A stretch of DNA of 64,000 nt from Octopus vulgaris (Eukaryota): NCBI GenBank assembly GCA_951406725.2, contig OX597820.1, positions 77,128,001-77,192,000 on the forward strand, given 5' to 3'. Both the position numbers and the translations under genes were made by a program. Shown here one piece after another: positions 6,558 to 50,880 of the stretch. The notes under the pieces were generated by a model. The model ran no database searches. It was given only the letters and a program-made list of their open reading frames with translations, and had not been told where the DNA came from. Positions within the stretch are counted from its first letter, which is position 1. Every line of letters starts with the position of its first letter.

Positions 6558-6937
6558 TCCTTCAGCTTTTGGTGGTAATCCGTCGGTGACGACGACGAGG
6601 GTTCCAGTTGATCCAATCAACAACCTGCTCGTGAAATTAACGTGCAAGTGGCTGAGCATCCCACAGAGACGTGTGCTCTTAACGTAGTTCTCAAGGAGAT
6701 TCAGTGTGATACAGAGTGTGACAAGACCGGCCCTTTGAAATACAGGTACAACAGAAACAGGAAGAAAGTGTGAAAGTTGTGGTGAAAGAGTACAGCAGTG
6801 TTCGCCACCCCCACCCCCTGTCGTAGCCACATAGAGCAGAGCTTTAGGCGTTTTCGATCAATAAACACACACAATGCCCGGTCTGGGAATCGAAACCGCG
6901 AGTCGACTGCCCTAACCATTGGGCCATTACGCCTCCA
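6558..6937 (-). mobile_element. tRNA-derived SINE, family C (head GGAGGCGCAATGGCCCAGTGGTTAGGG; central TTGCACGTTAATTTCACGAGCAGG)
   Basis: Colinear with a second copy at 32235-32600; B-box GGTTTCGATTCCC. Confidence 0.8.
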
Positions 6938-9388: not shown

Positions 9389-9768
9389 AGGCGCAGGAGT
9401 GGGTATGTGGTGTGTAGCTTGTTTACTAGCCACATGTTTCCAGGTTCTCTCCCACTATGTGGCATCTTGGACAAGTGTTTTCTACTATAGAATCGGACCG
9501 ACCAAAGCTTTGTAAGCGGATTTGTTAGACGGAAAGTGAAAGAAGTCTGTATTATATATGTGTGTGTTTGTATCTGTGCTTGTCCCCCACCAACGCTAGA
9601 CAAATCATGCTGGTGTGTTTACGTACCCGTAACTTACCGGTTCGGCAAAAGCGATAGATGTTATAAGTACTAGGCTTACAAAGAATAAGTCATGGGGTCG
9701 ATTTGTTTGACTACTGGCGGTAGTCCAGTATTGTCACAGTCAAGTGACTGAAAAAAGTAAAAGAATAT
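9389..9768 (+). mobile_element. Full-length tRNA-derived SINE, family B (GGCGCAGGAGTGGCTGTGTGGTAAG...; CORE-like CTTGGGCAAGTG; LINE-like 3' tail)
   Basis: Head, central part and tail GGCGGTAGTCCAGTATTGTCACAGTCAAGTGACTGAAA are present. Partial copies lie at ~14900-15085, 17480-17640, 41800-41955(-), 44428-44560, 51490-51570(-), 53445-53600(-), 54655-54840 and 62161-62318. Confidence 0.8.
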
Positions 9769-15321: not shown

Positions 15322-16879
15322 TTAGTTAGTTAGTTAATTTGGCTCAAAAGCAAATAGCAAGGCCATGTAGGGGGACATGGAGTTAAGTACAGGGTGGTGT
15401 TCATGTAAAGAGTTCAGGCCACTTGAGGTCAAGGGAGGCTTTGAACAAAGCGGTCGTCGGCATCTTCACCATCTCGTCTGGCAGCTTGTTCCACAGATCC
15501 GCAACCCGGACGGAGAAAGCTCCTCTCCTTCGATTGAGATGAAATCGTCGCAGGTAGAGCTTTTCGGAATGACCCCGCAGCCGAAGCTCTGGAGCAGGAG
15601 TGAAGAACAGCTCGTTCGAGAGGTTACACTTTCCGCTTATGATGTTGTGGGCGAGAATGAGATCACCACGGCGGCGGCGTTTTTCAAGAGAATAAAGGTC
15701 GAGCGTCCTCAGCCTTTCTTCGTAGGACAAATTTTTGAGACCATGAATCATGCGGGTAGCCAGCTTCTGGACTCTTTCGAGATGCTGTATGTCTTTGAGG
15801 AGATAAGGAGAAGAGGCTTGAATCCCATACTCCAATATGGGTCTCACCAGCGTGACATAGAGTGGTAGGAATATGGCTGCTGTGAGCATTCCGAATGACC
15901 GTCGAATCAAGAACAGAATTCCGCGTGCTTTGTTGGCAGCATGGACGCACTGGGCCGAAGGCGAAAAGGAGGAATCCGATCAAGATACCTAGGTCCTTTA
16001 CCTGATCGGTCCTCTCCAGCAGCAGACGACCCGGCTCGAAATCAAGTTGAGTTGTAGGAGTAGAGCCGACAGGCAGATGACAGCACTTTGACACGTTCAG
16101 ACACAGGTCCCAATTGTTAGACCACTTCCAAATTTGGTGGAGGCATCGACGAAGATCCTCTATATTACCGCGAGGAGCGACCAGTTTGATATCGTCGGCA
16201 AATAGAAGGGTGTGTTGCGTGATGTCGTCGGGCAAGTCATTTATGAAGACTAAGAACAACAAGGGCCCAAGCACTGAACCTTGAGGCACGCCACTGCTCG
16301 CACTGGAGACGTCGGACCGCGAACCATTAACTTGGACTTGGAAGGAGCGATCTGAGAGGAAGGTACCAACCCATCGTACAATATCCGGATGGAAACTATA
16401 TGCTTGAAGCTTGACAAGCAATAGGCGGTGGTTTACCGAGTCAAAAGCTTTGGCAAAGTCCAGTAAAACGATGTCAACAGCATCACTATCATCGAGGATG
16501 CGCGTCACCAATTCTTCCATTACTAGTAGGTTGGTCAAGAATGATCTCTTCGGCACGAAGCCGTGTTGGGAATCAGAGATAGAGGCTGTGTTCAGGAGGT
16601 GGAGCATCATACTTTTCTTAAGGATGGTTTCGAACATCTTGCTGATAATTGAGGTAAGGGAAACCGGTCGGTAGTTAAGCGGGTCTTCGCGGCTCCCTTT
16701 CTTGAAAATTGGGCAGATTATCGCTGTTCTCCACTCTGCAGATATAACACCCGTCGCCAATGACATATTGAATAGTCGTGTTAAGGGCTCGCAGATGACC
16801 GGAGCCAACGCTTTGATAACCCGTGGGTGTATGCCGTCAGGGCCGTGACCTTTGTTGACATCGAGCACTGGAATAACAC
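15322..16879 (-). mobile_element. 5'-truncated CR1/L2-group LINE (RT and C-terminal part of ORF2), young copy with one frameshift near 15975
   Basis: Motifs GPDGIHPRV, NYRPVSLTS, QHGF, LDFAKAFDSV, GVPQGSVLGPLLF, LFADD, KDLG, VRPILEY and RRRRGDLI. The 3' tail is (TAAC)n, with a candidate TSD GTCAAG at 15316-15321 and 16880-16885. Confidence 0.93.
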
Positions 16880-17410
16880 GTCAAGAAGTGTGGAAGTGAA
16901 GAGAAAAAGGAACTCTCAAAAATGTTCGTAGTCTGACATCAAAGAATGGACTGGTCGGTTGTATAAGTGCAAAATAACAGAAACAAACGTAAAATTTTGA
17001 CAAAGCGACTCCTGAAAAATGATCATATCCTTGTCGACATATTTGTACCCAAGTGGACGATGGTTAACGTTGCCAATTTTAATTGACAAAAGGATTGTAT
17101 CATAGAAAGTTCAACTAACGGTTGATCAAAGCTCTGATAACGGATTTACAGTTTTAAGCAGTTAAATATTTAATGAAATGTCAGCAATATATATTACATG
17201 GCGCTGAAAGGGAAATGCATTTATATTGTAACAACATTTTAAGATAAATATGTAATTTTTAATGATATTTTTTATTCACAGATATACGGACATGCATATG
17301 CTTACATAGACACACACACACGCACACATATCCATGTCTATATAGATGTTTATGTATATATATACATATAGAAATACATAGAAGTGCACAGTGAAACATT
17401 TATTTCGTAT

Positions 17411-23635: not shown

Positions 23636-23884
23636 ATCTGAGTTCAATGCTAAGTTCTGAGTTCAAACCGAAGTAGTGAATACATACATTGGAATTTATG
23701 CGCCACGTAGCAGCCTCTTCTGATATTTCAAATTTTCTCAACATACATGAGAGTAAAAAGCAATTCATTGTCGTGGAAGCTACAGATAACAAGACGTCTG
23801 AAGAGTTCTAACTGAACTATATATGATATGTGGGTGTATCAGTATACGAATGTGTGAAGGAATGTGTGTATCCCCGTATAGATA

Positions 23885-24283
23885 TGTTTCTTTATTAGCC
23901 ACACAGGGCTGCACACAGATAGAACAAATTACAAGGTAGAGCTTTTCTTTTGAAGGTAAAAAAAAAGGGGGCGTGACGATATTAACGATAGACTCGGCTG
24001 ATAAACCGACACGTCCCACACGTGACAGCAGTCGTTCGTGTGGGACGTGTCGGTTTATCAGCCGAGTCTATCGTTAATATCGTCACGCCTCCTTCCTTCA
24101 AACGGGAAGGAAGAGCTATTTTTATCATACTTGTGGCTATGGCGAAAGAATGTACCTGGTGGACGCGCCTGAAAGGATTAGAGACAAACACTTTCCTCTC
24201 TGGTCAATCTCTCATCAACTTCTTCAAGTATCACTTGAGGAGGAAAGTGAGAGTAGAGAGGCAAGTTTTGTCTAGTGAATGTT
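23885..24283. mobile_element. Rearranged Tx1/L1-clade fragment: ORF2 C-terminus (+), inverted 3' end (-) and a perfect 53-bp inverted repeat
   Basis: Plus strand gives AIFIILVAMAKECTWWTRLKG..LINFFKYHLRRKVRVER. The minus strand ends GCAGCCCTGTGTGGCTAATAAAGAAA. Arms are 23970-24022 and 24037-24089. Confidence 0.7.
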
Positions 24284-24303
24284 ATAGATAGTTAGGTAGA
24301 TAG

Positions 24304-33757: not shown

Positions 33758-33794
33758 AGGCGTAGGAGTCGCTGTGTGGTAAATAGCTTGCTAA
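33758..33794 (+). mobile_element. First ~37 nt of a family-B SINE head, interrupted by Tx1-like insertions
   Basis: AGGCGTAGGAGTCGCTGTGTGGTAAATAGCTTGCTAA aligns with AGGCGCAGGAGTGGGTATGTGGTGTGTAGCTTGTTTA at 9388. Confidence 0.75.
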
Positions 33795-35744
33795 TCTCTG
33801 ACGTGTTTTTTTGCTGCTCCAGTTGTCACGTGTTTCAACGTGAATTGTTGAACTTTTGACTCGACTGCAGGTAGGCGTTTTGTATTTTTAGGAGCTTAGT
33901 GAAGTTTATTGCTTGCATTTAATGTTTTTTAGCATTTAATAATTTTTAGCAGGTAATAGACTTCACTCTGCTCCGGATATTTTTCCTGCCTGTGGTCGAG
34001 TATAAAGACTCACTTTGTAGTGAGAATTGTGTTTTTTGAGGAGGCGTAGCCCCACCTCAAACACTAACGTGTGTAATTGCCTTTGTCTTCGGATTTACCA
34101 ACGGAGTACCAGGGATTATTTTCACAAGTGGATTACCAGTGGCCTGGAATACCTTTTTGGCCGGGAAAAAAGAAAAAAAAATTAATTCCTTTGCCTGGAT
34201 TTTGAACTCTCTTCTGTTAAAACTTTTTTGAACTGCTGTTTCGAATGTTGTTTCTTCCCTTCTGTTCTGTTTTTCATTCTCCTTTTTTTGTCTATTTTAT
34301 TTTATCACTTTGAACTGTTTTTTGAACTTTTGTTATGGCAAAGGAGTTCACCATATGGGAGTTGACACCTCCCAAAATATATCTGAAAGAGCTAGAGGAC
34401 AAGACCGTGGTGTTGAGGACATATTCAAAGTCGCTCAACACCATAGCTGTCTTTCCAAAGGCCACTATTGTTAACTAGCTGGCAGACTATATGCCAGCCG
34501 TTAAATACATCACACGGGGAGTCAAATACGCAACGGTTTGGTTGCTGTTTGACTCCCCTAAAGCAGCTTGCGACTTTGCAAGCAAGCCCATTGAGGGCAA
34601 GGAGATATTATTCCTCCCTAATTACAAGGGACAAAAATTGTTGAGAGCTTGGATCTGCGGCTTACCACCCGGCGTTGAACCCGAGTGAATAGAGGACTCT
34701 ATCCGCCGGGGTCTGGGTGGTAGCAGCGCCAAGCTCCTAAACGTAAGAGTACAGCCTGCGGCTGATTGGGAGGGGTCAAAAGCTACTTTGACCCTATGGA
34801 CCCAATCAGCCAAAAGTCTGGTTTTGCCGGACTTCCTGAGGATGGCCGGGTACAGGTATCCGGTGATGCTTGAGGGACGTCCCCCCAAGTGTCACCTGTG
34901 CCTGGAGACCGGCCATATTAAGAAAAACTGCCCCAGGGACCAAAGTAGGATCCTGGAGCAGTTGATATCGGAGCATCTCCCTGCCCCCCCCCCCCCAATG
35001 GAGGGAGAGAAACAGAACGAGGAAGCGACGACTTCCTCAAGGAGAAAGAGAAAAGTGGGGAGCAATGTTAATGTCTAAAGCTGCGGGAGAAGAAGAAAAC
35101 CCGGTGTGTGCAACACCGAAACCTCAACCTCCCGCGGCCCAAGGTAAAAAGAAGAAAAGGAAGAGGAGAAACGGGACGCCGCCGGCGGATTGTGATACGC
35201 AGACGGCGTCTCCCAAGTCTTCTCAAGCGGGTGTGCCGCCTGAGGAACAACTTGTGGAACAATTTGTGGTCCTCTTTTTTAAAGGTAGAACAGTGGAAGG
35301 TGAGATGAGTAAAACGAGAAAGCGGGGCCATTGGGAGGGACTTCGGTCCTGCACGGAGGACCCCGAGTGACCTTCGCAGGTGGCTGCGGAGGTCATAGGG
35401 AGGGGTAATCTGGGCAGGATCACGCATTCCTTCCCGATGGACTCATTCCAAATTATACCTCTAGACCACGACCTGACCAGCGATGATTGCCTCGTTGAGG
35501 CAAGAGCGCTGGTGGGCCGGGTAACATAGACTTATTGAACATTGTATTGTATTGAAAAAGAAAATTTGAAATTTTTGTGAAATTAAAAAAAAAAAAAAGG
35601 AACAATGTCTTAGAGAAGCGAGGGTCGGCGGGCGCTCTTGTCTTCTCCCATCACCATCTTCGTCCATCACCATCATTCATTAATGTTTTGTGTCCAGCTC
35701 GCAGCTACTCTATGTACTGCCATAGTGGCAAATCTTATGAAATA
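33795..35744 (+). mobile_element. Full-length ORF1-only (HAL-like) Tx1/L1-clade non-autonomous retrotransposon with a 14-bp TSD
   Basis: A ~540-nt 5' UTR, a single gag-like ORF and a ~215-nt 3' UTR ending ATGAAATA(AA). AAATAGCTTGCTAA occurs at 33781-33794 and 35745-35758. No EN or RT motifs are present. Confidence 0.8.
34335..35529 (+). pseudogene. Tx1-type ORF1 (RRM-like region, CCHC zinc knuckle, basic NLS-like tract) with several stops and a frameshift
   Basis: MAKEFTIWEL...TRGVKYATVWLLFDSP...AWICGLPPGV...YPVMLEGRPPKCHLCLETGHIKKNCP (CX2CX4HX4C)...KKKKRKRR...ARALVGRVT*. Confidence 0.8.
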
Positions 35745-35760
35745 AAATAGCTTGCTAACC

Positions 35761-36861
35761 TCACTGACTGAAGAGTTCGCTTTTTTCATGCAGCTTGAAA
35801 GTCACGTCTTGCGACATGAAAATTGAACATTTTTGAAGCACGACTGCAGGTAGGCGTTTGTTGTATTTTTTTGAGGGCTTAGTGGAGTTTGTTGCCCTGT
35901 ATTTAATAATGTTTGGTGAGTAATAGAATCCACTCTGCTCCAGACATTTGCCTGTCTGTGGCCCTCTATAAAGACTCACTTTGCAGTGAAAATTGTGTTT
36001 TTGAGGAGGTGTAACCCCTCCGCAAAAATTAATTTCCTTGCGAAAATTGTCTCGTGTCTGTGGATTACCAAGGAGTACCAAGGCAGCAAGGACTGTTTTT
36101 GCAAGATGGACGTGAGTGTGTTGGCTCTGTCCAATATTGAACTGAAAGAAAAAAGAACGACATCAGCATAAGACCGTAGAGGTAGGTGGATTTGTTTTCG
36201 GTTGAGCTGGGTGTAATTTGTTAAATAGAAATTGTTTGTGTGTTGATAAATTTCGCCCAGCTCCGTGGCAATTCTGCCTGCTGTCGGGGGCTGCTGTTTG
36301 TTGTTTTTTGTAGTGCCCGAACTTACTGGATTTTGCCATTGAAACTTGTTGAAGTTGGCCAGTAGTACCTGTTGGCCATCGATGTTTGCAGTGTGAACTG
36401 TTTTTCTTTTCTCTATCTTTCTGGATTTTTTTTCTTTTTGGAGCTGTTTTTGCGTTTCTTTTGAATTTTATTTTTATTCCTATTTTTTGAACTGACTTGT
36501 TTATTTCTTTTTGGACTTGGTAATTCATTTGGACTTTCCTTCTTCTTTTGAATTGACTTTTAACATGGTAAATGCAAAAAGCGCCTTAGAATGGGAGGTG
36601 GTCCTACCTAAGCAATGGACTGAAAGCCTTGAGAGAAGGACGTTGGTACTACGGACCTATTCTAGGCGCGTGACGCCATCGCTCTCTTCGACAAGGGTAT
36701 AATTAATAAAGAGCCGCCAAAATGTTTGCCAGCTAAAAATTATTGTGACAAGGGGTGTGAAATACGCCACGGTGTGGCTACTTTTCGACACTCCTAAGGA
36801 GGTTTGCACTGTGGCAGGCCAGCCCCTGGTAGGGGAGGAGATTTTGTTTCTTCCCACATAT
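35761..36861 (+). mobile_element. Second, diverged member of the same Tx1-like family: 5' UTR and ORF1 N-terminus, 3' part lost
   Basis: Starts TCACTGAC (first copy TCTCTGAC). Shares CGACTGCAGGTAGGCGTTT, CACTCTGCTCC and TATAAAGACTCACTTTG. ORF from 36565 reads MVNAKSALEWEV..VLRTYS..TRGVKYATVWLLFDTPK..ILFLPTY. Confidence 0.8.
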
Positions 36862-37309
36862 CGTTAAAATTTAGAAATTTTAACAACTTTACATCTCATA
36901 TCTAGCGTCAAGCTGTTAATGTCTAAATATTCATTATGGGATATTAAATGGTAATCTATTTATCTTCAAATTCGCAAAATGTTTCTGCTCGTGAATGTCA
37001 AAGAGAATTGTGTAATGATGCTGTCAAGGGATATCTTTCATAATTTAGGGTTTTCAAAATTATGCTTTCTTTGCAACAAATACTTATTTTCCTTGTGATT
37101 TTTAAAATACCTTTGGATATGTAATGAAATAATATCGCATACCTACAATTTGCACAATAATTGAAAAGCTTTTAATATAATAAATGTATTCCAGTAAATT
37201 TCTTCGTCATTAGCTTGTGAATTTCAGTTTACAACATAAAGTATCATTCATCATGTTATATAAAAAGCGCTATATAATAGAATACATTGTAGTAAACTTT
37301 AAATGATTA

Positions 37310-40587: not shown

Positions 40588-41215
40588 TAGAAAGGTTTTG
40601 GTCAGTATTGGCCCAGGCCATGTCTAACTTAATAGCACCACCTGGCGAAGTCTTTCAATTCAGGATTTGGGCACCGAGGCCCATTCGAGCAGGGAGTTAT
40701 TGTTTGCGGAGACATATCCGGGTGTGGGTGGTTTGTCCGGGACTGTTTGAAGGAATTTGTCCAAAGACTTCTTGAATTTTGTGTGATCAGTTTCTGTTTT
40801 GACGTGTCCTGGTGTAGTGTTGAAGAGAGCGGGTCCAATTGAGGTGAAATAATTGTGCTGTATTGTCGTCATGTGATGCGATTTAGATTTTTGTTGTGGA
40901 CGGATGGCACGTGGTCCAAGCCTTGGATGTATTTTGAAGGTGATGCCAACATCATTCGGACAGTGCTGATGGAATATTTTCCACATCATACAGATAATGT
41001 AGCGTTCACGGCGTCGTTGGAGTGAATACAGTTTCAGCTTCTCTAGTCTATCCCAGTAGTCAAGGTCTGACATGCCATCTATCTTTTTTGTGATTGACCT
41101 TTGGGGAGCTTTAATTCTCATAATATTTTGTTTTGTGTAGGGAAACCACAGTAGACAACGGTATTCAAGGTGGGGTCGGGCAAAAGTGGAGAAGAGAAGG
41201 ATAACAGTGTGGGAA
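40588..41215 (-). mobile_element. 3' end of a CR1/L2-group LINE ORF2, open throughout, inserted in TA-rich microsatellite; related copy at 61128-61440
   Basis: [36 protein letters not shown] and [25 protein letters not shown]. The 3' UTR CCAGGTGGTGCTATTAAGTTAG is shared with ~61160-61180. Confidence 0.88.
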
Positions 41216-49579: not shown

Positions 49580-50880
49580 GCTCTTTGTAAAGGAGGGCGT
49601 TCGACACTGCTGCCCTCTTTTGAGTTTCCTTCTTCAATACAGGTTCATTGGATAACAAGAGATCAAGTTGTTTCTTGAAAATATCTACGCTAATCCATGA
49701 AGATCACCCAGATCCTTTCGCAAAGCATTAAATAGCTGTGGGTATCGGAGTTCCAAGCCATTCAAGTACGTGTCCGTCACTCCAAATGGGATAGCTCGGT
49801 GCTTTGGAACAGTGCAAACACGCCCATTTTATGAAGCTGGTACGGATTTCGATACGAAGGTTTGGGATTGCGGCCCCAGGATCTTCCATACGTATATCAT
49901 TGCCTACCTCTCTCGTTTTCATTCCAAGGAGTAGATTCGTAGTGCTTTGAGTTTTTTCTAGTAGCTCAGCTATGGCCTCAAGTTATGCTATCCATTTGTC
50001 AATGAAGGGTAACCACAGTTGAGAGCAATAATTTAGACGTAGGTATACAAATATGTCCTGCATAGAACCAGCATAGTTTTCTGGTTCCTTTCTCTGATAT
50101 GTCTCACAATTCATCCGGCGATTTGCCTGTCCATTTCCACCATCTTGCCGTACATGAAACGAGGTATCATTGCTCATATCAATCCCCAGGCCACGCATTG
50201 TGCATTACTCTGTGATTGTCACACCTTATGGTCCAAAGTACCGTAATTGTGACTTGTGAACACTAATTAACTGTAGAATTTACCTGCATTAAATTACATG
50301 TTGTTTTCTTCAGCCCATTTATATACGGTATTTAGATCTATTTGTAGAATATTAGCATCAGAAGGTTCCTTGGCAGCTTGCACTGCGTATGTGTGGTCGG
50401 CATCGCTGGTGAGTGTGGTTGTCTGTGTAACTGATGGCATGTATCAAAGAGCCACCACGAACGGTAGCGAGCCCAATACAGTTCCCTGATCACTACAGTC
50501 GCTATTAATGTTTGTCTCCTTAGGGAGGCCCCCATTGGCTGCTACGGCCTGGCTTCTGTCATTTAAGGAGTCATGCAACCAGTCTCCCAGATTCCCGACG
50601 ATGCCGAGTCTCCGTAGCTTGTGACATATCAACTCGTGACCAATCTCCTCAAAGGCCTTTACGAAATCGAGATGTATCACATCCACATTTGAGCAATTCA
50701 TTGTTTCAGCACCCGATCATAATACTTCTTGAGCGGAAGCCATGCTGTGTGTCAGGGAGAAAGTTTTTAAATTCATGGAACGCAATCACTTTCCACCTAA
50801 CAATGCCTTCCATCATTTTGCTTACGTGTTAATTTAAAGAATTTTAACATCTGCTCTGCTACCTCCCTTGTGGATAGAAC
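49580..50880 (-). mobile_element. Old, degraded CR1/L2-group LINE RT and C-terminus, related to the 2.9-3.3 kb element
   Basis: QHGF, VDVIHLDFVKAF, QGTVLGSLPF, RGLGI and LNYCSQLW, plus FKKQLDLLL..KKETQKRAAVSN near the 3' end. Confidence 0.75.

Follow-up and report, generated by a model that had tools for sequence, protein, structure and literature searches.

A long interspersed element (LINE) of Octopus vulgaris and a group of non-autonomous relatives insert at a single base of an abundant short interspersed element (SINE), and two of the relatives lie stacked there in the stretch of DNA described here, a window of 64,000 nucleotides (nt) from contig OX597820.1 (positions 77,128,001 to 77,192,000). 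The two, called elements 1 and 2 below, are very probably independent retrotransposons that carry open reading frame 1 (ORF1) only. The endonuclease and reverse transcriptase that copied them in trans were likely those of the LINE, a 5.4-kb element using the same base. Genome searches confirm that hundreds of relatives use this SINE base; one mobile element is the landing pad for a group of others. Below, the LINE is referred to as the partner and its ORF1-only relatives as passengers.

On the plus strand of the window, the SINE head is followed by a 16-nt repeat and element 1 (1.95 kb), then by a second copy of the repeat and by element 2, which lacks its 3' part. The sequence read-out thus bears out the layout and shared orientation proposed in the earlier note. 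The 5' part of the target tRNA-derived SINE (33759..33780) includes an A-box-like TCGCTGTGTGG at 33769-33779, and the insertion point follows 33780. Next comes the 5' junction repeat AAATAGCTTGCTAATC (33781..33796), made up of duplicated target and a distal part that is likely element-borne. Element 1 (33797..35744) is a complete ORF1-only non-autonomous element without poly(A), 94% identical to its nearest relative. Its ORF1 (34335..35529) has two predicted RNA recognition motif (RRM) domains and a predicted CCHC knuckle starting at 34890, and is no longer intact, with two stop codons in frame and a shift of frame near 35070. The 3' untranslated region (UTR), which follows ORF1 directly, holds a tail motif, CAGCTACTC (35702..35710), partly complementary to the target AAGTAGCTT, and closes with a GCC-N5-GGC hairpin and a TGAAATA end (35718..35744) common to the autonomous partner; with the AA of the target, this end forms AATAAA. 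Beyond the junction repeat between the elements, AAATAGCTTGCTAACC (35745..35760), lies element 2 (35761..36864, end approximate), which belongs to another ORF1-only subfamily and is 90-92% identical to its nearest relatives. Its 5' end is intact, the first 16 nt matching the start of the autonomous element, while its ORF1 is decayed from 36565 and its 3' half is deleted. Neither element contains an ORF2, and the missing 3' half of element 2, its tail, and the remainder of the target SINE were not found within the window. A SINE at ~44426 was considered as the lost continuation and rejected, as it is a separate intact copy; a further intact copy of the target SINE lies at 9390.

Are the two elements separate arrivals, or one element copied in place? 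They are 74% identical over ~300 nt of 5' UTR and 72% identical over 108 nt of ORF1. The former value, together with their membership in separate families, excludes element 2 as a tandem duplicate of element 1 and agrees with the earlier suggestion of independent insertions. That suggestion had also placed them 2 nt apart on the target, which does not hold: both begin in the same register (TCTGAC and TCACTGAC). Three relatives of element 1 (L006, L017, and L030) read ...GCTAACC/TCTGAC at the 5' junction (a slash marks the junction here and below), and the apparent offset would most simply be a point mutation, C>T, at the 5' junction of element 1. Exact copies of the 14-mer AAATAGCTTGCTAA lie at 33781-33794 and 35745-35758, within a junction repeat of 16 nt that has one mismatch (...CTAATC versus ...CTAACC). 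A rare G>A at nt 3 is common to both window repeats and marks them as a true duplication made by element 1. With two mismatches allowed, the two matches to AAATAGCTTGCTAA in 64 kb are not above chance (29/100 shuffles), even though both are exact, so the case stands on the genome-wide junctions; a whole-window repeat search was dominated by microsatellites. As for the order of events, the lower identity of element 2 to its nearest relatives is a weak hint that it is older in place, and element 1 may have been added upstream afterwards.

The searched genome comprises 2.8 Gb. In each DNA search the scoring was limited to the 40 best matches, which favors young copies. The queries lacked target sequence, those for elements 1 and 2 starting in the last junction bases or after the junction. 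With the 5' UTR of element 1 (401 candidates, 40 scored, and 30 fetched, the window included), 26/30 5' ends follow a SINE head and 4/30 follow the tail of another element, all via AAGTAGC-like junctions. Among the 3' ends of this type (1472 candidates, 30 fetched), 20/30 resume the SINE body, 8/30 enter another element, and 2/30 keep only the first target bases. The flank check proposed in the earlier note therefore places 30/30 5' ends and 28/30 3' ends at GTGGT/AAGTAGC or in stacks there, and flanks this homogeneous genome-wide uphold its claim of sequence-specific insertion in an abundant tRNA-derived SINE just 3' of the A-box. The note had named a head that belongs to the element itself as one of the findings that would overturn it; SINE sequence continues downstream of the elements, however, so the head is not element-borne. 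In the element 2 family (25 fetched of 40 scored), 22/25 copies lie at a SINE head and 3/25 at a tail. Four of these are one segmental duplicate: L299-L302 (G000:C28:22.49-22.62 Mb) are a single insertion present in four copies with the same flank.

How abundant are such sites, and how often would they be found by chance? The exact 30-nt junction between tail and SINE occurs 476 times genome-wide, and its reversed control 0 times. Uninterrupted exact SINE sites number 53,949, and shorter head patterns find 103,373 AAGTAG and 16,756 AAGAAG sites. From these ~120,000 exact heads in 2.8 Gb, the chance of landing at such a head is ~2e-5 per insertion. Every sample of insertions shows a single base and a single orientation, and 5'-truncated copies likewise lie at the SINE site. 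One locus, L169 (G000:C9:2669600-2679500), holds at least three head-to-tail young autonomous copies with identical junctions, an array that may reflect successive insertion, read-through, or tandem duplication.

The earlier note had called for an autonomous ORF2 partner, and one was found. Several of the 30 junction loci had the end of an ORF2 upstream, and longer stretches revealed a 5.43-kb element with an apurinic-endonuclease-type (APE) endonuclease and a reverse transcriptase (RT), inserted at the same base. Its ORF1 matches zf-CCHC (2e-5) and its ORF2, of 1133 amino acids (aa), matches Exo_endo_phos (1.4e-11), RVT_1 (9.8e-14), and zf-RVT (3.6e-9); L174 and L180 keep both ORFs intact. 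The catalytic motifs of the endonuclease of human L1 (L1-EN) align with those of the partner, and among solved structures human L1 ORF2p is the best match (E 8e-67), followed by R2 (6e-20), L1 and R2 being the only full-length references that appeared. The nearest named protein comes from Argonauta hians (65% over the RT region). A partner 3'-end query without target sequence (425 candidates, 30 fetched) gave 27/30 copies followed by SINE body and 3/30 by another element, that is, one base in 30/30, where flanks of one type in more than 20% of copies are the threshold for target specificity (PMC4494074). Full-length copies are ~98-99% identical to the copy in L091, and their SINE bodies belong to different subfamilies with private changes; near-identical copies in diverged SINEs must be independent insertions. 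The partner is a young LINE of the L1/Tx1 group and is the likely supplier of the enzymes that the passengers lack. Membership in the Tx1 clade in the strict sense is suggested by architecture (an ORF2 of APE, RT, and zinc finger, L1-like RT and endonuclease, and a type I ORF1); no named Tx1 reference was among the protein-search, cluster, and atlas results for the partner. The loop tip of its endonuclease, GDGK where Tx1L has RDGH, may be a faint hint of sequence specificity like that of Tx1L. A sequence-specific APE, which the note had predicted for the lineage, would therefore be encoded by the partner; the window elements, as ORF1-only passengers, carry no endonuclease gene.

What are the passengers? 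They are elements of ~2 kb in which ORF1 is followed by the tail. Their intact ORF1s are 395-416 aa long and fall into several subfamilies that are 49-53% identical. The modeled N-terminal region (pLDDT 80.7) resembles tandem-RRM proteins at E ~1e-4, with a TM score of only ~0.29, and the CCHC knuckle scores below Pfam's cutoff; on these predictions the protein is a type I ORF1 (RRM plus CCHC), which is consistent with Tx1 (PMC5203782). Purifying selection maintains it: when the first 205 codons of 6 intact ORFs are compared, all 15 pairs give dN/dS of 0.12-0.24. None of 145 loci carrying this ORF1 has an ORF2 after it; five also hold an ORF2, which lies in a neighboring stacked element or upstream. 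The passenger and partner ORF1s are homologous (E 1e-20, 27% identity), while at the DNA level passenger and partner match only over their last 38 nt (E 0.015) and, in the case of element 2, over the initial 16 nt. With ORF1s this distant and DNA similarity only at the element ends, the passengers are ORF1-only lineages of long standing and did not arise by recent deletion from the present partner. A second family that looks ORF1-only (L015:360-1136, L264, and L265) uses the same site with a partner-like tail and an ORF1 23% identical to the window type.

The junction repeat proved to be of mixed origin. Both junctions were paired in 68 cases, though the automatic pairing includes a few false pairs (L017, L212, and L253). 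Ten full-length partner copies are informative because their recipient differs from CTAACC at nt 11-16 (L091, L092, L162, L163, L170, L173, L174, L175, L176, and L177), and 10/10 keep TAACC ahead of TCACTGAC at the 5' junction, in many cases with one additional T or TG around nt 9-11. Passenger subfamilies have fixed 5' variants of their own (CTCACC-GAACGG and CTTACC-AGACAG). Full-length elements thus carry their own 5' mimic of the target, 5-8 nt long (e.g., CTAACC), and only 8-12 nt of their repeat are target-derived; although the SINE head is not part of the element, the 14-nt repeat partly is. In 5'-truncated copies the shared stretch ranges from 0 to 17 nt. Four truncated copies with private variants (L051, L056, L245, and L247) share 14-16 nt, possible microhomology included, suggesting that the top-strand cut can lie ~14-16 nt downstream and that in full-length copies the distal part is overwritten or trimmed. 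A fixed target duplication of 8-10 nt was rejected on account of these copies.

These observations suggest the following cycle. The APE endonuclease of the partner would nick the bottom strand at GTGGT/AAGTAGC, and its ORF2 protein would carry out target-primed reverse transcription, in cis for the LINE and in trans for the passengers. Passengers would be mobilized because the protein recognizes the shared terminal hairpin and the AGCTAC motif. No poly(A) is encoded; as the element end AAATA and the target AA make AATAAA, transcription would continue for 10-30 nt within the SINE. The RNA copy of this stretch would then base-pair with the nicked primer, which would hold the 3' junction at a single base. 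The invariant 3' junction, the lack of poly(A), and the AATAAA completed by the target all suggest such priming by read-through RNA, as for R1Bm. The top strand would be cut at a variable point, up to ~14-16 nt downstream, and in full-length copies the end of the cDNA, with its 5-8-nt mimic, would anneal there and overwrite nt 11-16. Each insertion would leave a usable site, allowing head-to-tail stacking. Sequence specificity would on this account reside in the endonuclease, and the SINE may offer the safe harbor that the earlier note envisaged.

Several findings weigh against this reading. (i) The generic tail pattern occurs 1455 times, and only 976 of these tails precede a target hexamer (771 AAGTAG and 205 AAGAAG). 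(ii) Among the first 30 generic tails, 23 are at the SINE site, 1 is an ORF1-only copy at a look-alike site, and 6 lie elsewhere; five of the six belong to a different short element with a similar tail at AT-rich sites, and one is unassigned. Proteins that recognize the tail are therefore not always site-specific; the ORF1-bearing families are, but not everything with this tail is. (iii) The shared junction length varies from 0 to 17 nt, as mentioned. (iv) Given the low ORF1 identity and the DNA match at the ends only, another autonomous family, so far unseen, could be the true helper. The short element itself (in L208, L211, L213, L218, and L224, around position 1500) has the same hairpin-GAAATA end and stands before ATT or AT-rich sequence; it is likely a SINE that uses the tail of the LINE group without site specificity.

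Could the specificity come largely from the element's RNA? The partner tail carries AAGCTACTT at -80, an exact complement of AAGTAGCTT, and passenger tails have a 7-8-nt version of the motif near -43, the stretch between motif and hairpin being absent. If the tail motif AAGCUACUU paired with the displaced top strand or its read-through copy, RNA and target would have to match and the endonuclease would need to be only loosely specific, an account that is rather unlikely. Tail and target do vary together. Among 132 distinct tails, AGCTA(C/A) occurs with AAGTAG in 85 and with AAGAAG in 9, while AGCTTC occurs with AAGAAG, the older SINE variant, in 11 and never alone with AAGTAG; 26 tails have neither motif and 1 has both. 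The Fisher p of 7e-10 for this association ignores kinship and age. In a tree of 76 passenger tails built with the varying base removed, AGCTTC appears in two lineages, and a partner-type tail with AAAGCTTCTT stands at AAGAAG in L262; yet seven of the nine discordant AGCTAC copies form one clade. The covariation thus amounts to only about three independent concordant changes versus one discordant clade and two single cases, and age confounds it. Of the young partner's direct SINE insertions, 0/27 lie at AAGAAG, a variant that makes up 14% of heads (p = 0.017), but such discrimination at nt 4 could be protein-based. Folding pairs the motif with the read-through sequence in the partner and L034 (-10.1 to -16.3 kcal/mol), though not in element 1, and the motif is absent from the scanned tail stretch in L015, L236, and L260. 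The sequence alone would be compatible with either read-through RNA or the top DNA strand as the pairing partner. A further proposal is tentative at best: an APE-type LINE whose target choice lies partly in its own RNA, with the 9-nt tail motif pairing with the displaced strand and the 5' mimic sealing the other end, so that LINE and passengers tracked the SINE as it changed from AAGAAG to AAGTAG. If this were true, a change in the motif would retarget insertion.

Two other accounts find less room. Ty3 and the Dictyostelium TRE elements are tethered to RNA polymerase III factors. Recruitment by such factors at the promoter of the SINE, combined with an endonuclease whose sole preference is for T/AA, as in L1, could explain a site 1 nt past the A-box-like motif, and GT/AAG does resemble the L1 consensus TTTT/AA (PMC1950540). 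It is nevertheless quite improbable: all samples show one base and one orientation, the later insertions in stacks took place although kilobases already separated the A-box from the B-box, and no ORF1-bearing copy in another SINE family was found among the 30 generic-tail loci. The absence of any tail near 30 tRNA gene loci also speaks against it, weakly, since intact genes had been selected. Alternatively, head, element, and body might spread as one composite, or the element might itself begin with the head. In favor of this, full-length copies start with 5-8 nt that resemble the target, but the junction data refute a composite unit and leave it next to no probability. The near-identical partner copies occupy SINEs that differ in subfamily and carry private mutations, the head runs straight into the element in 5'-truncated copies (L062, L083, L089, L118, L123, L125, and L127), the tail of another element takes the place of the head in stacked copies, and private target variants are duplicated on both sides (the window, L051, L056, L245, and L247). 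Protein-guided insertion of independent elements at one SINE base remains the preferred explanation.

What kind of element is the target? It is a tRNA-derived SINE (SINE2) whose tRNA-like head has an A-box and a B-box, both assigned by eye. Aligned locally to tRNAs of this genome, the head scores z 6.8 versus shuffles with tRNA-Lys(TTT) and z 6.4 with Ala(TGC), values so near each other that they leave the tRNA of origin in doubt; a search of Rfam with one SINE copy found no tRNA at E values up to 5. Insertions enter immediately past the GGT of the D-loop, where the A-box ends on its 3' side. The 3' terminus of the SINE, CAGTCA-AA-TGACTG-AAACAAG(TAAAAGAG)n, differs from the tail of the LINE, and the best match of the SINE to the LINE is an internal 11-mer (E 0.93); the idea that this SINE is the LINE's own passenger is therefore not supported. 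TGTTTGTCCCC follows a T/G-rich stretch in both the SINE body and the partner 3' UTR (L034 and L180); at E 0.93 the match is not significant alone, and it could mark an old segment common to the two. At L097:7620-7950 and L259 (~1400-1530), a SINE head and partial body are fused to the tail of a LINE or a passenger, and these chimeras occupy the target site in a further SINE copy. In L261 (~6600-6670), at an AAGAAG site, a tRNA-like sequence continues into the final 30 nt of the partner tail. Elsewhere in the window, 23789-24285 holds a fragment of a related ORF2 C terminus of the L1/Tx1 group, 55% identical to the partner and in part inverted-repeated around ~24040; other, unrelated LINE ORF2 fragments lie at 16233-16889, 50447-50680, and ~40660-41000 (minus strand).

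Why does the system matter? With it, a SINE joins the list of targets used by sequence-specific LINEs, and the usual relation, SINEs exploiting LINEs, is turned around. Each insertion splits the A-box of the SINE from its B-box and would silence that copy. A young partner with intact ORFs and one-base precision offers a system for studying how an APE endonuclease gains specificity, and also second-strand cleavage and 5' joining in APE LINEs, which are called unresolved in PMC6895275. Two natural target variants with matching tail variants make a role of RNA-target pairing directly testable. Finally, the long-lived, selected ORF1-only passengers raise the question of why a non-autonomous element retains its own ORF1.

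Tx1 LINEs that insert in other transposons include Xenopus Tx1L in Tx1D (piggyBac), crocodilian Tx1-Mar in Mariner-N4_AMi, which has SINEU passengers, Tx1-9_AMi in Harbinger, and Tx1-8_Crp and Tx1-4_AMi in long terminal repeat (LTR) elements (PMC4494074). Like them, the octopus system combines an APE-RT LINE of the L1/Tx1 group, a mobile-element target, passengers that share the target, and tandem insertions. Unlike Tx1-Mar, which uses two Mariner regions, it hits one base of a tRNA-derived SINE in one orientation, and unlike all of them it has protein-coding ORF1-only passengers, a target-complementary tail motif, and a 5' target mimic, as far as the available text of that source describes them. 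The Tx1L endonuclease (Tx1L-EN) nicks its own target almost exclusively, being sequence-specific alone, with a contribution from a hairpin loop (PMC1950540). No LINE targeting a SINE was found in the literature searched; Repbase, Dfam, and the supplements of PMC4494074 were outside the scope, and a database entry is possible. Two papers on cephalopod repeats, in the portions available, treat L1-Tx1 at the level of the class only, and one of the two describes it as recently active (PMC13282606, PMC8967140).

The passengers resemble HAL1 (half-L1) in carrying ORF1 only, under purifying selection and in several subfamilies (PMC5753468). They differ in their type I (RRM plus CCHC) ORF1, their lack of poly(A), their strict site specificity, and an ORF1 only 27% identical to that of the present partner. 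A poly(A) tail is a trait of mammalian-type L1 derivatives such as HAL1. The window elements work like HAL1 but are not HAL1, since they lack the type II ORF1 and poly(A) of mammalian-type L1 derivation. Fixed sites in multicopy sequences derived from small RNAs are familiar too. Dewa targets tRNA arrays. Keno targets U2 snRNA (PMC4494074), and the Dada DNA transposons target the A-box of tRNAs (PMC8869645), the very region used here. In the octopus, however, insertion hits no host gene but a selfish SINE present in >100,000 copies, and the element is no DNA transposon like Dada. Drosophila HeT-A encodes only ORF1/Gag, needs the reverse transcriptase of a partner, and forms head-to-tail arrays; it belongs to the Jockey group and is added to chromosome ends. 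The passengers share its ORF1-only makeup, its head-to-tail arrangement, and probably its dependence on a partner, but would enter a nicked internal sequence.

The proposed pairing of target-like RNA with target DNA, 3' with the nicked bottom strand and 5' with upstream DNA, parallels R1Bm, SART1Bm, and R2Bm (PMC7265360, PMC6895275). R1Bm requires downstream target sequence (PMC7265360); R2 RNA retains upstream target sequence, which the octopus 5' mimic recalls (PMC6895275). The internal tail motif, by contrast, has the opposite sense, being complementary to the top strand or the read-through RNA, and the available portions of those two papers describe none like it. Overall, a parasite of a parasite is a relation of a known kind, and what the octopus elements add to it is a SINE as the target, ORF1-only passengers, a 5' target mimic, and a tail motif that partly covaries with the target.

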